Made by a program: the position numbers and the translations under genes. Shown here piece by piece: positions 1 to 4,388 of a DNA stretch of 4,388 bases. Under the pieces are notes generated by a model. The model was not told the DNA's origin. It saw nothing but the letters and a program-made list of their open reading frames with translations, and did not search any database. This DNA comes from a virus (lineage: Duplodnaviria > Heunggongvirae > Uroviricota > Caudoviricetes): IMG/VR virus record IMGVR_UViG_2648501437_000021, positions 1 to 4,388 of that record; one strand, given 5' to 3'. Position 1 is the first letter of the stretch, and each line of letters opens with the position of its first letter.

Positions 1-2
1 TA

Positions 3-800
3 TCATCAAACCGCCCGACACATTTCAGTTCATGGGCGCGCAGGAGCATTATTCCGGATCGTCTGGCAACCGCTATTCTGAACGCAGCCGGGCGCACCTC
101 AGCCTTCATCAGTGGTAAGGCACCGGAAATCAAACCCTCGCCCGGCGGCAACACGCCATCGGGTCCGTCTGCAGATACGTCCGTTCGCACAATCTCCCTG
201 CTGCCGGCAGCCGGAGAGGCTGCTGCGCAGGGCTGGAGCATTAAAGATGGCGGAATTCAGTTGTCAGATGGTGTATTTAAGATCACCAAGCAGAGCAATA
301 AAACCTGGTCCCTGACGCATCCGGTGGATGACGCAATTACCCTGCTGACACAGGGCGGCAGACTGACCTGTAAGTTCCGCCTGTCAGGCGCACTGACCAA
401 CAATCAGTTCGGGCTGGGGATTTATCTGTATACGGACGCTCCCGTTCCTGACGGCGTGGCGATGACCGGGACCGGTAACCCGTTCCTGATGTCGTACTTC
501 ACCCAGACCACAGACGGCAGAGTGAATCTGATGCATCACAAGAAAGCAGGAAACACAAAGCTGGGCGAGTTCGGCAATTACAGTAACGACTGGCAGACGC
601 TGGAACTGGTGTTCACCGCCGGCAGTGCCACGGTTACTCCGAAACTGAATGGAGTGGCTGGCCCGGCATTCCAGGTCATAAAAGACAGTCTGACACTGGG
701 ACTGAATGCGCTGACGCTGACGGATATTACAAAAAATGCAGCGTATGGCGTTGAGATAGAAAGTCTGGTGCTGGAGATAAATGCACCGGCATCATCATAA
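3..800 (+). CDS. 3'-terminal part of a larger late-region gene (5' end outside window); Pro/Gly/Ser-rich linker followed by a ~200-aa C-terminal domain of unknown function
   Basis: Frame 3 is open from the first base to TAA at 798-800, with no in-frame stop or ATG/GTG/TTG before the TTG at 261, so the listed 261..800 ORF is the tail of a longer gene. Codon usage is enterobacterial (ccg, ctg, gcc, ggc, acc). Residues encoded around nt 120-180 (APEIKPSPGGNTPSGPSADTS) look like an interdomain linker. It sits directly upstream of the holin, the position where lambdoid phages carry morons such as stx and nanS-p. Product identity not established. Confidence 0.7.
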   Translation, partial: SSNRPTHFSSWARRSIIPDRLATAILNAAGRTSAFISGKAPEIKPSPGGNTPSGPSADTSVRTISLLPAAGEAAAQGWSIKDGGIQLSDGVFKITKQSNKTWSLTHPVDDAITLLTQGGRLTCKFRLSGALTNNQFGLGIYLYTDAPVPDGVAMTGTGNPFLMSYFTQTTDGRVNLMHHKKAGNTKLGEFGNYSNDWQTLELVFTAGSATVTPKLNGVAGPAFQVIKDSLTLGLNALTLTDITKNAAYGVEIESLVLEINAPASS

Positions 801-883
801 AAAGTGAGCCAGCCAAATGGAAGGTATCGTTAAACTCACCGGTAGTGTCAGTGGGTCGTCTGAGACGCCTGCATGAGTTATCA

Positions 884-914
884 GAGCCATCAGTACTTAA
901 CTGGTGGCTTTTTT
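884..914 (+). terminator. Rho-independent terminator between the upstream gene and the holin
   Basis: AGCCATCAG (884-892) pairs with CTGGTGGCT (900-908) as a 9-bp stem with one G-U wobble, 7-nt loop TACTTAA, followed by a T6 run at 909-914. Confidence 0.6.
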
Positions 915-950
915 TATTGTTGTCAGCTTCCGGATAACGGGAGACGGGGT

Positions 951-1166
951 ATGGACCAGATGGAAAAAATCACAACAGGTGTGTCATACACCACGTCAGC
1001 GGTGGGAACGGGATACTGGTTACTGCAGCTGCTGGACAAAGTCTCCCCGTCCCAGTGGGCGGCAATAGGCGTGCTGGGGAGTCTGCTGTTTGGCCTGCTG
1101 ACATATCTGACTAACCTGTATTTCAAAATCAGAGAGGACCGGCGTAAGGCGGCGCGGGGAGAGTAA
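951..1166 (+). CDS. S: Class II holin of the phage 21 S type (pinholin), 71 aa, with Met1/Met4 dual-start motif
   Basis: [71 protein letters not shown] is near-colinear with phage 21 S as I recall it: weakly hydrophobic Gly/Ala-rich TMD1 (SAR-like), TMD2, and the same charged C-terminus [17 protein letters not shown] at 940-943 lies 7 nt upstream of ATG 951; a second in-frame ATG is at 960. The listed 873 start is an upstream extension through the terminator hairpin with no RBS. Confidence 0.85.
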
Positions 1167-1170
1167 AGCG

Positions 1171-1515
1171 ATGAAGAAAAAATACGAACTGGTTGTTAAA
1201 GGGATAAATAATTACCCGAATAAGATTACTGTTACTGTGGCACTGGAAATTGGTGGGTATCCGTCACTGTTGTTGCCAGATGTGGCGATTAGTCTTGACC
1301 GTACTGAAGATGCCACGCTGGAGTTTTACGAAGCTGAGGCGAAAAAGCAGGCGAAGCAGTTTTTCATGGATGTTGCTGCCGGGTTATGTGAAGGGGATGG
1401 TCCGTTGCCGGAAAAGCGCCCCGTAATTTTAGAGGCGCAGGATGTGTTGATAACCTACAGAGGAAAACTACCGGGAATAATTACTGGTTCTCTGAAGACT
1501 CCACCGCTGGCCTGA
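1171..1515 (+). CDS. Hypothetical 114-aa soluble acidic protein inserted between holin and endolysin
   Basis: ATG lies 4 nt after the holin stop (TAA 1164-1166), suggesting translational coupling. Clean ORF with enterobacterial codon usage, no signal peptide or TM segment. Position and size resemble small uncharacterised ORFs found between holin and endolysin in some E. coli lambdoid prophages (e.g. ydfR of Qin); homology not verified. Confidence 0.65.
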   Translation: MKKKYELVVKGINNYPNKITVTVALEIGGYPSLLLPDVAISLDRTEDATLEFYEAEAKKQAKQFFMDVAAGLCEGDGPLPEKRPVILEAQDVLITYRGKLPGIITGSLKTPPLA

Positions 1516-1565
1516 AGACTTAACATATCCAGGGATTTGAAATCGATAAACCCTGATAAATATCC

Positions 1566-2099
1566 ATGAACACAAAAATCAAATACGGCCTGTCGGCTGC
1601 CGTTCTGGCGCTGATTGCCGCAGGTGCGCCTGCGCCTGAAATCCTCGACCAGTTTCTGGATGAAAAGGAAGGCAACCACACCACGGCATACCGTGATGGC
1701 GCAGGTATCTGGACCATCTGCCGCGGTGCCATCATGGTGGATAGCAAACCTGTCGTCCCGGGCATGAAGTTGTCGAAGGAAAAATGCGACCAGGTTAACG
1801 CCATTGAACGTGATAAAGCGCTGGCATGGGTGGAGAAAAACATCAAAGTGCCACTGACCGAACCCCAGAAAGCGGGGATCGCGTCATTCTGTCCGTACAA
1901 CATTGGTCCCGGTAAATGTTTCCCGTCGACGTTTTACAGACGAATTAATGCAGGTGATCGCAGGGGAGCGTGTGAGGCGATTCGCTGGTGGATTAAGGAC
2001 GGTGGCAGAGACTGCCGTATTCGCTCAAATAACTGTTACGGTCAGGTATCCCGTCGCGACCAGGAGAGTGCGCTGGCGTGCTGGGGAATTGACAGATAA
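1566..2099 (+). CDS. R: SAR endolysin, T4-lysozyme-like muramidase (GH24), 177 aa
   Basis: N-terminal Gly/Ala-rich weakly hydrophobic SAR domain (YGLSAAVLALIAAGAPAP) without Cys. Catalytic triad in canonical T4L spacing: E35 (EGNHTT), D44 (RDG), T50 (GIWT). C-terminal region resembles phage 21 R / P1 Lyz family. Paired with a pinholin upstream, as expected for pinholin-SAR lysis systems. Confidence 0.9.
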   Translation: MNTKIKYGLSAAVLALIAAGAPAPEILDQFLDEKEGNHTTAYRDGAGIWTICRGAIMVDSKPVVPGMKLSKEKCDQVNAIERDKALAWVEKNIKVPLTEPQKAGIASFCPYNIGPGKCFPSTFYRRINAGDRRGACEAIRWWIKDGGRDCRIRSNNCYGQVSRRDQESALACWGIDR

Positions 2100-2188
2100 G
2101 CAGAATATTTTGCTGAAAAATGCGGTTTGCTCACACGGACGGATAACACGAAATCCTGAGAACTGACAAAAACTAAGTGAATAAAAGT

Positions 2189-2228
2189 AAAACCCCCATT
2201 TGTTGGCTGCAAGCGGGGTTTTGTGTTT
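2189..2228 (+). terminator. Hairpin with flanking A- and T-tracts downstream of the endolysin; possible weak or bidirectional terminator or RNA processing structure
   Basis: AAAACCCC (2189-2196) pairs with GGGGTTTT (2215-2222) around an 18-nt loop that has an internal TTG/CAA mini-stem, followed by a T-rich tail to 2228 (TTTTGTGTTT). Stem is short, so termination efficiency is uncertain. Confidence 0.3.
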
Positions 2229-2258
2229 CCTGACTCCGGAAAAGTCAAAGGAGAAAGT

Positions 2259-2396
2259 GTGTTTGATTTTAGCAAACTGATTCGGGAGATTCGAGTGATG
2301 GCTGAAAAATTATCCACCTGGAAGTTCATCCTTATCTGGCTGGTGTTTGTGATTATGGCCTCCGGTTATTTCATCGGTCAGATACGCTGGTGGTGA
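2259..2396 (+). CDS. Candidate small single-pass membrane peptide (45 codons) between endolysin and Rz; not in the supplied ORF track
   Basis: Consensus SD AAGGAG (2248-2253) lies 5 nt upstream of GTG 2259. The ORF reads (M)FDFSKLIREIRVMAEKLSTWKFILIWLVFVIMASGYFIGQIRWW and stops at TGA 2394-2396, one base before the Rz ATG (2398). It has a ~20-residue hydrophobic segment flanked by charged and aromatic residues. An alternative start is ATG 2298 (32 aa). Confidence 0.4.
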   Translation: MFDFSKLIREIRVMAEKLSTWKFILIWLVFVIMASGYFIGQIRWW

Positions 2397-2397
2397 A

Positions 2398-2892
2398 ATG
2401 AACCGCGTACTGTGCGTGGTCATCATTGCCCTGCTGGTGGCCTGTGGTGCGCTTAGTCTGGGGCTGAATCATTACCGTGATAACGCCATAACCTACAAAG
2501 AGCAGCGCGATAAAAAAGTCAGTGAGCTGGAGCTGGCAAATGCAACCATTACTGATATGCAGCAGCGCCAGCGTGATGTTGCTGCACTTGATGCCAGATA
2601 CTCGAGGGAATTAGCCGATGCGAGAGCTGAAAATGAAACTCTTCGCGCTGACGTTGCCGCTGGTCACCGCAGCCTGCGGATCAACGCCACCTGTCCAGGT
2701 CCCGTGCGTGAAGCCACCGGCACCGCCCGCGTGGATAATGCAACCGGCCCCCAACTGGCAGACACCGTTACACGGGATTATTTCACCCTCAGAGAGCGGC
2801 TGATGACGATGCAGAAGCAACTGGAAGGGGCACAGGACTATATCCGCACTCAGTGTACTAAGCAGGCTTTTTATTATCCGGAGGATGTATGA
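2398..2892 (+). CDS. Rz: Rz i-spanin (inner-membrane spanin subunit), 164 aa
   Basis: N-terminal TMD (VLCVVIIALLVACGALSLGL) followed by a coiled-coil-prone periplasmic domain; extensive colinearity with lambda Rz as recalled (NHYRDNAITYK.QRDK, ITDMQ.RQRDVAALDA, ERDYFTLRERL.TMQKQLEG). Confidence 0.9.
   Translation: MNRVLCVVIIALLVACGALSLGLNHYRDNAITYKEQRDKKVSELELANATITDMQQRQRDVAALDARYSRELADARAENETLRADVAAGHRSLRINATCPGPVREATGTARVDNATGPQLADTVTRDYFTLRERLMTMQKQLEGAQDYIRTQCTKQAFYYPEDV
2618..2803 (+). CDS. Rz1: Rz1 o-spanin (outer-membrane lipoprotein spanin subunit), embedded in the +1 frame of Rz
   Basis: Lipoprotein signal peptide with lipobox ending ...LVTAAC, then a proline-rich mature region (CVKPPAPPAWIMQPAPNWQTPLHGIISPSESG) closely matching lambda Rz1 as recalled. 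Lies entirely inside Rz in a different frame. Start could be ATG 2618 (lambda-like length to the lipobox Cys) or ATG 2633. Confidence 0.85.
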   Translation: MRELKMKLFALTLPLVTAACGSTPPVQVPCVKPPAPPAWIMQPAPNWQTPLHGIISPSESG

Positions 2893-3113
2893 AGAAATTG
2901 CAGGTAACGGTAAAACCTTTTCAGGGAACAATTCCGTTCCGTGTTTTGCAACATGGCCGTGTTCTGCTTGAAGAGGTGTTCAGAGGTAAATGCACTGAAT
3001 GTTATTCACGAACATATGAAGTGAATGCCACGCATGAAGAATTCACCGTTGAGTGTGTGATGAATACTGATAAATGCCGAATGGTATCCGCTGAATTACA
3101 GCCAGTGTGTTGA
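2889..3113 (+). CDS. Small Cys-rich hypothetical protein (74 aa), translationally coupled to Rz
   Basis: ATG 2889 overlaps the Rz stop (ATGA overlap, TGA 2890-2892). GGAGG at 2879-2883 lies 5 nt upstream. No signal peptide. Five cysteines including a CxxC pair (GKCTEC) plus C56, C63 and a C-terminal Cys, suggesting a small metal-binding or redox fold. No family recognised. Confidence 0.65.
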   Translation: MKKLQVTVKPFQGTIPFRVLQHGRVLLEEVFRGKCTECYSRTYEVNATHEEFTVECVMNTDKCRMVSAELQPVC

Positions 3114-3394
3114 GCGACCTTATTATCCATGCGCGGTATTGTCGCCGTATTCCTGCATTAACAGAGACCGCAGCCCGACAGGGAGACTCCTCTGCGAGAG
3201 TGTGCGGGGATAATCAAAAACGATACACACCGGGGTTTACCGCGTAAACGGAGCGCGGCGTTGTCCCCTCATGGTCGCTGGTCCGGTGCGATGGTGGAAG
3301 AAACCGGACGATGTGTTACCTCGCAAACTCTGTTATGTCATGTGTCTGATTTGTGATTTAAGTCGGATAATTGTCATTGCCATTAAGCAGAGGA

Positions 3395-3437
3395 TTGATG
3401 ACCGACAGGGCTGCATTGTTAGAATAAGACTTATTCT
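3395..3437 (+). promoter_or_regulatory. Candidate sigma70 promoter with a palindrome over the -10 region, upstream of the lipoprotein gene
   Basis: TTGATG (3395-3400) as -35 and TAGAAT (3420-3425) as -10, with a suboptimal 19-bp spacer. The -10 is embedded in a perfect inverted repeat AGAATAAG-a-CTTATTCT (3421-3437). AT-rich context about 20-60 bp upstream of the lipoprotein start. Confidence 0.25.
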
Positions 3438-3457
3438 TATCTATGCCGGGAATAAAA

Positions 3458-3784
3458 ATGAAAAGAAATCTTCCGTTAATTATTTTGTTGTCTTCTTTGG
3501 TTATGGGCTGTACGCAACATAAAACAGATATGCCTCGACAGTTGGTTAAGGCATTACCACAATATCCGGCCTATGCCGCGGCAAATTATATAAAGGGACG
3601 GGTTGATGTGAAGTTTGATATTGGTGCTGATGGTACTGTCACCCGAATTGAGTTTATCCGTTCAGAGCCGCACCATCTGTTTGATGAGCAGGTTGTAAAG
3701 GCGATGGCAAAATGGCGATTTGAGAAGGACAAGCCGCGTAAAGGCGTGAAGAAAACATTTATCTTTAGTCCTTCAGCACCCTGA
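3458..3784 (+). CDS. Lipoprotein consisting of a TonB C-terminal domain (TonB_C fold), 108 aa; predicted outer-membrane anchored
   Basis: Signal peptide MKRNLPLIILLSSLVMGC with lipobox VMG-C and Thr at +2 (no Asp, so Lol sorting to the outer membrane is predicted). The mature part, LPQYPAYAAANYIKGRVDVKFDIGADGTVTRIEFIRSEPHHLFDEQVVKAMAKWRFEKDKPRKGVKKTFIF, aligns motif-for-motif with the E. coli TonB C-terminal domain as recalled (PQYPA, G.V.VKFD, DG.V, S.P, F, V..AM..WR.E..KP). GGGA at 3449-3452 lies 5 nt upstream of ATG 3458; the listed 3443 start lacks an RBS. Confidence 0.8.
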   Translation: MKRNLPLIILLSSLVMGCTQHKTDMPRQLVKALPQYPAYAAANYIKGRVDVKFDIGADGTVTRIEFIRSEPHHLFDEQVVKAMAKWRFEKDKPRKGVKKTFIFSPSAP

Positions 3785-4241
3785 TTATTTTATCAGAAGT
3801 TAATTATCACTCTGTTGCTATTCAGTACATCCCTGCAGGGTAAAGTCTTGTTTCGCCGGATATGAAGATGAAATATTGTTAGAAGACAGTAGCTACCGGT
3901 TCCTGTAACCGAACGTTCATTTCTCGTTATTTTTCATGCTGGCCGGGCGCAGGTGCTTTGCATCTGTTGCCAGCCTTCTCCTGCAGGCTTCAATAACCCA
4001 TGCCGAAAAATTACCCGATCCCTTACGTTCAAGGGCAATATGGATTTGATTAATCATCTGGTTTGGGAAGCTTTATTTTTTGATGACATTGTGTTTTTCC
4101 GTGTTCAGTGCTGCTGATTTGTATTGTCTTAAGATGTCTTTACGTTAAGTTGACACAGATCAATTAATGCATGACTTGGACAAAATTGATTATTTGTCGT
4201 GGTTTTATGGTGTACGTGGGATGTGTGATGGTATTTATATA

Positions 4242-4388
4242 AATGATAATTATTATCATTTATTGGGTCCTTTCCGGCGATCCGGCAGGCTACGGGGCGG
4301 CGACCTCGCGGGTTTTCGCTATTTATGAAAATTTTCCGGTTTAAGGCGTTTCCGTTCTTCTTCGTCGTAACTTAATGTTTTTATTTAA
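4242..4388 (+). other. Lambda-type cos region (cosQ-side palindrome, cosN, start of cosB); continues beyond the window
   Basis: From 4295 to 4388 the sequence matches the left end of phage lambda as I recall it (GGGCGGCGACCTCGCGGGTTTTCGCTATTTATGAAAATTTTCCGGTTTAAGGCGTTTCCGTTCTTCTTCGTC.TAACTTAATGTTTTTATTTAA) with one mismatch. The sequence just upstream (GGTCCTTTCCGG.GATCCG.CAGG.TACG) resembles the lambda right end. An 8-bp inverted repeat ATGATAAT-t-ATTATCAT lies at 4242-4258. Confidence 0.8.
4295..4306 (+). other. cosN cohesive-end sequence (12-nt GGGCGGCGACCT)
   Basis: Exact match to the lambda 12-nt cohesive end as recalled, in the expected context between the right-end-like and left-end-like flanks. 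Confidence 0.75.

Follow-up and report, generated by a model that had tools for sequence, protein, structure and literature searches.

The DNA examined here (the window) is the 4388-bp stretch covering positions 1 to 4,388 of IMG/VR record IMGVR_UViG_2648501437_000021, which family scans identify as the late region of a lambdoid, Stx-phage-like prophage. Its gene order is also seen in annotated relatives, and a search of 5426 complete E. coli genomes with the whole window gave a best match of 93.6% identity. The subject of this report is ORF74, an open reading frame (ORF) of 74 codons that begins at the end of the spanin gene Rz. ORF74 is a genuine gene of the protein family phrog_2571, and it probably specifies a dispensable, late-expressed accessory protein that would bind another molecule in the cytoplasm. 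The features of the region are listed below by nucleotide (nt) position in the window; L numbers designate loci of relatives, and SD stands for Shine-Dalgarno sequence.

nt ..800: C-terminus of a SASA/DUF6645 esterase (family scan)
nt 951–1166: class II holin of the phage 21 type (family scan)
nt 1171–1515: YdfR/DUF1327 gene (family scan)
nt 1566–2099: lysozyme (Pfam Phage_lysozyme)
nt ~2259–2396: small membrane ORF (phrog_6632)
nt 2398–2892, + strand: Rz i-spanin, the cistron upstream of ORF74 and not of the ORF74 family (Pfam Phage_lysis, E = 1e-47)
nt 2618–2803, + strand: Rz1, embedded in Rz (Pfam, E = 1.7e-20)
nt 2856–3128, + strand: presence/absence cassette of ~270 bp, comprising the Rz 3' extension, the SD, ORF74 and 15 trailing nt; absent from L028
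nt 2880–2884, + strand: SD (GGAGG), with a 4-nt spacer (atgt) to the ORF74 ATG
nt 2889–3113, + strand: ORF74, 74 amino acids (aa) plus stop, predicted soluble all-beta protein, phrog_2571
nt 3114–3442: stretch of 330 nt without a convincing gene
nt 3443–3784 (probable start 3458), + strand: TonB_C-domain lipoprotein gene (Pfam TonB C-terminal, E = 2.7e-15)
nt 3785–4231: AT-rich stretch
nt 4232–4388: stretch homologous to the DNA immediately 5' of Nu1 terminase genes, as seen in L004, L010, L028 and L057; we take it to be the lambda-type cos region (cosQ/cosN/cosB)

That ORF74 is not a chance reading frame follows from its distribution, its substitution pattern and the confidence of its structural model (described below). 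It is intact in 700 of the 5426 complete E. coli genomes, where it falls into two allele groups (at least 99% and about 82% nucleotide identity), and every record sampled from these genomes annotates it as a gene, under the name 'hypothetical protein'. Among phages it occurs in 28 records, which come from Stx2c, Stx2a and Stx1a phages and from H-19B (at the end of that record), and the exact protein is encoded on approximately 1000 database contigs, again as a hypothetical protein. Pairwise comparison of diverged E. coli and Salmonella alleles (Nei-Gojobori) gave ratios of non-synonymous to synonymous rates (dN/dS) of 0.17–0.39 at dS values of 0.4–1.0. A profile scan of genome contigs with the close-family alignment gave no confirmed locus in a collection that holds one genome per species, and a literature search by accession, PHROG identifier and topic found nothing on the gene.

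The whole of ORF74 belongs to phrog_2571 (E = 1.2e-28, 101 bits), its residues 1–73 aligning with profile positions 100–172 of 291, and it has no match in Pfam, NCBIfam, PADLOC or the PDB sequence set. The family signature (an M-K-x-L-x-V start, F17, Q21, G33-K34 and Y43-x-V45) is present in full. Among 119 aligned domains, F17 is found in 115, Q21 in 116, G33 in 118, K/R34 in 118, Y/F43 in 119 and V45 in 114. AlphaFold2 modelling from a 21-sequence alignment returned six strands and one short helix (predicted local distance difference test score (pLDDT) = 88.3, predicted template modelling score (pTM) = 0.74), and the fold is confidently predicted to be an all-beta sandwich. Profile searching of 1.84 billion representative proteins recovered 45 relatives, mostly of 70–126 aa, while in a second profile search every match named was a 'hypothetical protein', the source organisms being E. 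coli, Salmonella, Yersinia, Xenorhabdus and Providencia.

As the initial annotation had noted, the protein has no export signal. The N-terminus is charged every few positions (K2, K3, K9, R18, H22, R24, E28, E29), which leaves no hydrophobic signal core, and no lipobox and no hydrophobic or transmembrane segment could be read from the sequence. Fold searches with the model retrieved generic beta-sandwiches only, and a small virion-associated or tail-related protein of this type (a decoration protein, adaptor or assembly factor) is one conceivable identity. It is a very unlikely one. All the similarities are weak and of the generic kind that beta-sandwiches give (Foldseek E-values of 0.05 or more, Pfam scores under the gathering threshold); phages with identical sets of structural modules may have or lack the gene; and it is found with head modules of both the lambda type (Nu1/A) and the HK97 type (TerS/TerL).

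Most members of phrog_2571 are stand-alone proteins of 70–81 aa that start with MK.L.V, and further extended or fused forms of the domain exist. The 286-aa protein of PhiR46_1 (L004:3201–4061), encoded in the same slot after Rz, carries an ORF74-type domain at residues ~100–170, between N-terminal helical and C-terminal alpha/beta regions; its residues 101–153 are 36% identical to ORF74. Inclusion of this protein in the family accounts for the 291-column profile. Its AlphaFold2 model was of low confidence (pLDDT = 56) and recovered only the same central sandwich, and Pfam searches of the extended and fused homologues gave no informative extra domain, only a sub-threshold match to Phage_Tail_Tip. 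Since ORF74 corresponds to the middle of the profile and of the PhiR46_1 protein, and since the gene that usually follows the domain (phrog_4280, see below) is missing from the window, ORF74 could be a decaying remnant, the left-over middle domain of a 286-aa gene or of a two-gene cassette with no present function; the non-synonymous excess in one close allele pair, given below, also fits such decay. This explanation is improbable. The short stand-alone form is the family norm, nothing of the regions that flank the domain in the 286-aa gene is present in the window, diverged alleles have dN/dS values well below 1 and keep the start codon and SD, and the frame is intact and annotated in every record sampled. 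By these sequence comparisons ORF74 appears to be a normal stand-alone member of phrog_2571 and not a fragment.

The initial annotation had the ORF74 start codon overlapping the Rz stop, and the coordinates and translation confirm this: the Rz TGA (2890–2892) and the ORF74 ATG (2889–2891) together form ATGA (2889–2892, + strand). The GGAGG it described is also present, with a spacer of 4 nt rather than the 5 nt given. In eight diverged loci the SD is retained as GGAGG, GGAGA, GGGGG or GGAGT, and the same 4-nt overlap is annotated (PGAP/GenBank) in L001, L003, L005, L007, L008, L009 and L012. The overlap is absent in Salmonella (L010) and in PPyecE_EH1910 (L006), where Rz stops about 23 nt earlier at TAG and the ORF74 homologue has its own SD. 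The window has CAG in place of this TAG, and its Rz runs on for nine codons into the ORF74 leader, gaining the C-terminal extension QAFYYPEDV (window 2863–2892). Loss of the stop extended Rz and created the ATGA; the overlap is a feature of some lineages and not an ancestral one. Because some lineages lack the overlap and have their own SD, translation of ORF74 does not depend on coupling, while coupling to Rz in the window is plausible.

A crude consensus scan, in which site counts were at the chance level, found no sigma-70-like promoter on the + strand between 2400 and 2889, a range that takes in the 3' half of Rz, no terminator-like site between Rz and ORF74, and none from the ORF74 stop (3113) to the lipoprotein gene. 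The sole + strand hairpin found nearby in the consensus scan lies inside ORF74 (2925–2940). With its ATGA overlap and shared strand, ORF74 is placed for expression with the late lysis transcript, as had been proposed, and from this arrangement we infer that it is expressed with that transcript.

ORF74 lies within a cassette that is present in some phages and absent from others. The prophage of E. coli PCP06238 (L028) aligns with window positions 2300–2855 (93%) and 3129–3308 (94%) and with nothing between, its Rz abutting the conserved downstream element. ORF74 is therefore inserted between elements that are adjacent in a related phage, which is one of the features of a moron in Hendrix's sense (an autonomous insert). 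The Rz type of the window matches 289 phage records, and ORF74 is present in only 28. The gene is also not bound to one set of lysis proteins. In Salmonella (L010) a homologue with 71% identity shares its cassette with a holin of another family and with the Nu1/A packaging genes, E. coli alleles also accompany HK97-type terminases, and close homologues are found with the holin families Phage_holin_2_1, 2_3 and 3_3. Homologues of about 35% identity follow directly after the non-homologous DUF2570 and DUF2514 spanins, and a further one has the Q antiterminator on one side and the holin on the other. Of ten diverse loci, five have the family gene among the lysis genes or just downstream of them; in one (Yersinia) it comes after a major tail protein gene, and in Xenorhabdus it comes before the holin. 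This variety of neighbours marks phrog_2571 as a mobile cassette at module junctions of the late operon, often but not always beside lysis genes. The Rz-to-cos and Q-to-holin positions are general insertion slots, and elsewhere in lambdoid phages the former holds bor, Rha or other inserts; the view of the initial annotation that ORF74 sits in the slot of lambda bor was correct.

The same annotation had set ORF74 apart from the S/R/Rz/Rz1 set, and rightly so: searches of Pfam and PHROGs gave no lysis-family match for it, whereas the holin, lysozyme, Rz and Rz1 genes matched their families, and it has no transmembrane segment, lipobox or muralytic domain that would mark a canonical lysis protein. 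Its suggestion of a lysis-timing accessory survives as an alternative because of the adjacency to lysis genes. ORF74 would then adjust lysis timing from the cytoplasm by binding to a lysis protein, the pinholin or some other, much as T4 RIII or P1 LydB do with their holins. The gene follows the lysis cassette and overlaps the Rz stop; distant relatives directly follow non-homologous spanins (DUF2570, DUF2514, phrog_214, phrog_312) or the endolysin; and the 4-nt overlap recurs in one distant relative (L045). Against this, near-identical lysis cassettes function without ORF74, a specific holin binder would not be expected beside three holin families, some members lie in tail modules or upstream of the holin, the protein has no transmembrane segment, and the Rz-to-cos and Q-to-holin positions both take inserts in general. 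A lysis-timing role is for these reasons unlikely.

A small Zn-binding or redox module had also been suggested, from the cysteines. ORF74 does have the CxxC and three further Cys that were described, namely C35 and C38 (CTEC), C56, C63 and C74, making up 6.8% of its residues, a high share by bacterial standards. Among the close E. coli/Salmonella sequences C35 never varies and C56 hardly does; several alleles have L or S in place of C38, and most sequences lack C63 and C74. The commonest E. coli allele group (553 of 702 E. coli records) reads GKCTQLHS and hence has no CxxC. Across the 119 aligned domains (118 unique), Cys is found at the four alignable positions in 69, 32, 52 and 28; 25 of the unique domains are free of Cys and 26 contain a single one, and the PhiR46_1 protein has none of the ORF74 cysteines at matching positions. 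Thus the gene itself is conserved in related prophages, and across the family none of its five Cys is. Two specific forms of the idea were considered and rejected. A zinc ribbon would need four conserved ligands (two CxxC or CxxH knuckles), and ORF74 has a single CxxC with no second Cys/His pair in register; the model is an all-beta sandwich and is neither zinc-ribbon nor rubredoxin-like. As to a thioredoxin-like redox protein, there is no Pfam thioredoxin match and no thioredoxin fold, and in the model C35 and C38 lie at a strand end and in the following loop, not at the N-terminus of a helix. A Zn-binding or redox function is extremely unlikely on these grounds, despite the five Cys of the window's allele and the constancy of C35 and C56 among its nearest relatives.

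Nor is a functional partnership with the downstream TonB_C lipoprotein (3443–3784) borne out. In the window the two genes are same-strand neighbours, as they are in 90 E. coli genomes, contiguity being defined as at least 80% coverage of nt 2889–3784. ORF74 is, however, present in 700 E. coli genomes and the lipoprotein gene in 415, so that the 90 contiguous cases are few. Each gene also occurs alone in phages: ORF74 is found without the lipoprotein gene in FORC_042, strain 81009, Stx2_EH2201 and vB_EcoS-705R7, and the lipoprotein gene without ORF74 in Lys8385Vzw, where a Rha-family gene lies between it and Rz. They are 330 nt apart with an independently conserved element between them, and the predicted compartments differ (cytoplasm for ORF74, outside the cytoplasm for the lipoprotein). 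The rarity of contiguity and the separate occurrences mean that the two genes are independent inserts, and a partnership is the least probable explanation considered here. The lipoprotein itself has the lipobox LVMGC and may interfere with TonB-dependent uptake. Its family, phrog_1267, is labelled 'Rz-like spanin', which looks like a mislabelling given the TonB_C domain, and the consensus scan found a TG-extended -10-like promoter site just upstream of the gene (3398–3425).

A different partner emerged from the loci of relatives. The next gene after the ORF74-family gene in L010 and in the loci of distant relatives, on the same strand and some 40–95 nt further on, encodes a protein of about 70 aa, phrog_4280, with the motif MFVxxGLKxDPDNxGWVLGWxVVRxxPWHLxGVY and no significant match in Pfam or the PDB. 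Its genes were located as follows.

L010, nt 4265–4471: phrog_4280 gene
L017, nt 4341–4559: phrog_4280 gene
L023, nt 449–670: phrog_4280 gene
L026, nt 371–589: phrog_4280 gene
L027, nt 477–746: phrog_4280 gene

These partner proteins are 57–79% identical to one another, while the beta-sandwich proteins encoded upstream share only about 30–35%. Viral and genome collections together yielded 110 phrog_4280 loci, and the hidden Markov model of the ORF74 family matched in 61 of them. In nearly all full-length loci of the Enterobacterales type an ORF74-family gene lies directly upstream on the same strand and ends about 55–95 nt before the partner gene, and those of the Pseudomonas/Azotobacter type mostly have no such gene; phrog_4280 alone thus extends to Pseudomonas and Azotobacter. 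The window has no phrog_4280 (tblastn with five partner proteins, E ≤ 1).

In another lineage the neighbour is of a recognised type. In L143–L146 a 94-aa protein with the Acb2/Tad1 hairpin (Pfam, E = 2e-17; 63 bits, cut-off 27) is the product of the gene that comes right after an ORF74 homologue of 42% identity and just before Nu1, and a 204-aa gene upstream overlaps the homologue by 4 nt, the two being fused in one contig (P0058). The genes were placed as follows.

L144, nt 5314–5598: Acb2/Tad1-hairpin gene
L145, nt 3316–3600: Acb2/Tad1-hairpin gene
L143, nt 863–1147: Acb2/Tad1-hairpin gene

This neighbourhood hints that this slot collects anti-defence genes, a statement about the slot that provides no evidence on ORF74 itself.

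Taken together, the observations favour ORF74 as a dispensable accessory gene of the late operon. It would be read from the late (pR'-type) transcript directly after Rz, its translation starting either with ribosomes that finish Rz at the ATGA or from its own GGAGG. The product would remain in the cytoplasm as a single beta-sandwich domain of about 70 residues, would act by binding another macromolecule, and would be dispensable to holin, endolysin and spanin alike. The sequence has no signature of catalysis or metal binding, the conserved residues (F17, Q21, G33, K34, Y43, V45) being structural, and the domain is also found fused to other modules; from these two points we infer that it most likely works by binding. 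Among the three functional guesses of the initial annotation, the late-expressed accessory or moron agrees best with an optional insert of this kind.

What such a protein would bind can be suggested only tentatively. A role in conflict or host interaction during lytic growth, for example in anti-defence, is a possibility preferred over lysis timing because near-identical lysis cassettes lack ORF74, because close homologues accompany different holin families, and because the domain evolves much faster than its partner phrog_4280. Going further, and more doubtfully, phrog_2571 and phrog_4280 might form an unrecognised late two-gene module for phage–host or phage–phage conflict in temperate phages of Enterobacterales, such as an inhibitor or sponge directed against a defence system, which would agree with the Acb2/Tad1 neighbour of one lineage. 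The lineage of the window would then have lost phrog_4280, which accompanies the domain in most Enterobacterales prophages, and ORF74 would be a still-working solo version.

Several points weigh against the accessory reading and its extensions. Late timing and translation of ORF74 are deduced from gene arrangement; every database name for the gene is 'hypothetical protein', and no annotation or experiment has assigned it a function. Without its usual partner the protein could be less functional in the lineage of the window. The anti-defence idea draws on the gene neighbourhood of one lineage, with no PADLOC match for ORF74, and about half of the sampled contexts adjoin lysis genes, as lysis timing would have it. 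Lastly, two close alleles (L003:4385–4609 and L012:4001–4225) differ by about 17 non-synonymous and 2 synonymous changes (dN 0.11, dS 0.04), which fits diversifying or relaxed selection. A rough binomial estimate does not place this excess significantly above neutral (p ~0.14), and positive selection between the close alleles was considered and dropped accordingly.

Other features of the window were recorded alongside. The YdfR/DUF1327 gene is wedged between holin and endolysin, a position kept in many relatives. The phrog_6632 ORF would be 45 aa long if started at GTG 2259 and 57 aa if started at GTG 2223; it has a hydrophobic segment at its C-terminus and ends 1 nt before the Rz start, in the position (between R and Rz) held by an antirepressor gene in related phages. 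A non-coding element of about 180 nt (3129–3308) lies right after ORF74 and is far commoner than the genes to its left and right. When the stretch from ORF74 to the lipoprotein gene served as query, 1912 of the 5426 E. coli genomes matched, the sampled low-coverage matches covering 3129–3308 alone; the element also matches 398 phage records, among them those of lambda-like phages, Stx phages and ES18. Its immediate neighbours in relatives are Rz and, at the opposite end, the cos region; in the window the TonB_C gene and the AT-rich stretch (3309–4231) separate it from nt 4232–4388, which it normally adjoins. In PhiR46_1 it is duplicated, one copy lying on each side of the inserted block with the 286-aa gene. 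RNAalifold of eight copies gave 43 pairs, 10 of them with compensatory changes, compared with 3.3 ± 1.4 in shuffled alignments (0 of 500 reached 10) and 1–6 in slid controls; the single-sequence folding z-score was only -0.4, and Rfam returned no match in the window. Two kinds of identity are conceivable for it: a structured RNA within the late transcript or, at the DNA level, an element or a recombination boundary near cos.

ORF74 was already a database entry in a catalogued family; it belongs with the accessory genes in the variable late-region slots of lambdoid phages. The present analysis describes a real, selected and optional late gene that is probably neither a metal or redox module nor a component of lysis, which narrows the experiments worth doing. 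About one in eight of the complete E. coli genomes has it, as do converting phages of the Stx1, Stx2a and Stx2c types. The pairing with phrog_4280, together with the Acb2-type neighbour in one lineage, provides a testable lead to an accessory or anti-defence role, and the conserved pairing and the structured-looking element just downstream are the most useful leads. Should no phenotype be found, ORF74 remains an ordinary phage gene.

Comparison with known systems places ORF74 as follows. Within phrog_2571 the whole protein matches, and the family joins it to distant stand-alone homologues and to the 286-aa protein of PhiR46_1, but ORF74 covers only the central beta-sandwich part (positions 100–172 of 291); as the family has no assigned function, membership provides no mechanism. 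With zinc ribbons, rubredoxin-like knuckles and thioredoxin-type CxxC modules it shares only one CxxC, in the allele of the window, and it differs from them in the missing second Cys/His pair, the unconserved CxxC and the predicted beta-sandwich. T4 RIII and P1 LydB are small cytoplasmic proteins encoded with lysis genes, and ORF74 resembles them in these respects, so a functional analogy is possible; it has no sequence or fold relationship to either, and its relatives are found with holins of several unrelated families and, in some cases, apart from lysis genes. In the case of the Acb2/Tad1 anti-defence loci, a phrog_2571 gene is the immediate upstream neighbour of the hairpin gene in one lineage, but ORF74 is unlike Acb2, Tad1 or any PADLOC model, the window has no Acb2-like gene, and the link is one of neighbourhood. 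The bor gene of lambda encodes a lipoprotein on the opposite strand and has its own expression in the lysogen. ORF74 occupies the same slot between spanin and cos/terminase as bor-type accessory genes and shows the same presence/absence polymorphism, but it lies on the late strand, overlaps Rz, encodes a predicted soluble protein, and has no promoter or terminator of its own in the consensus scan.

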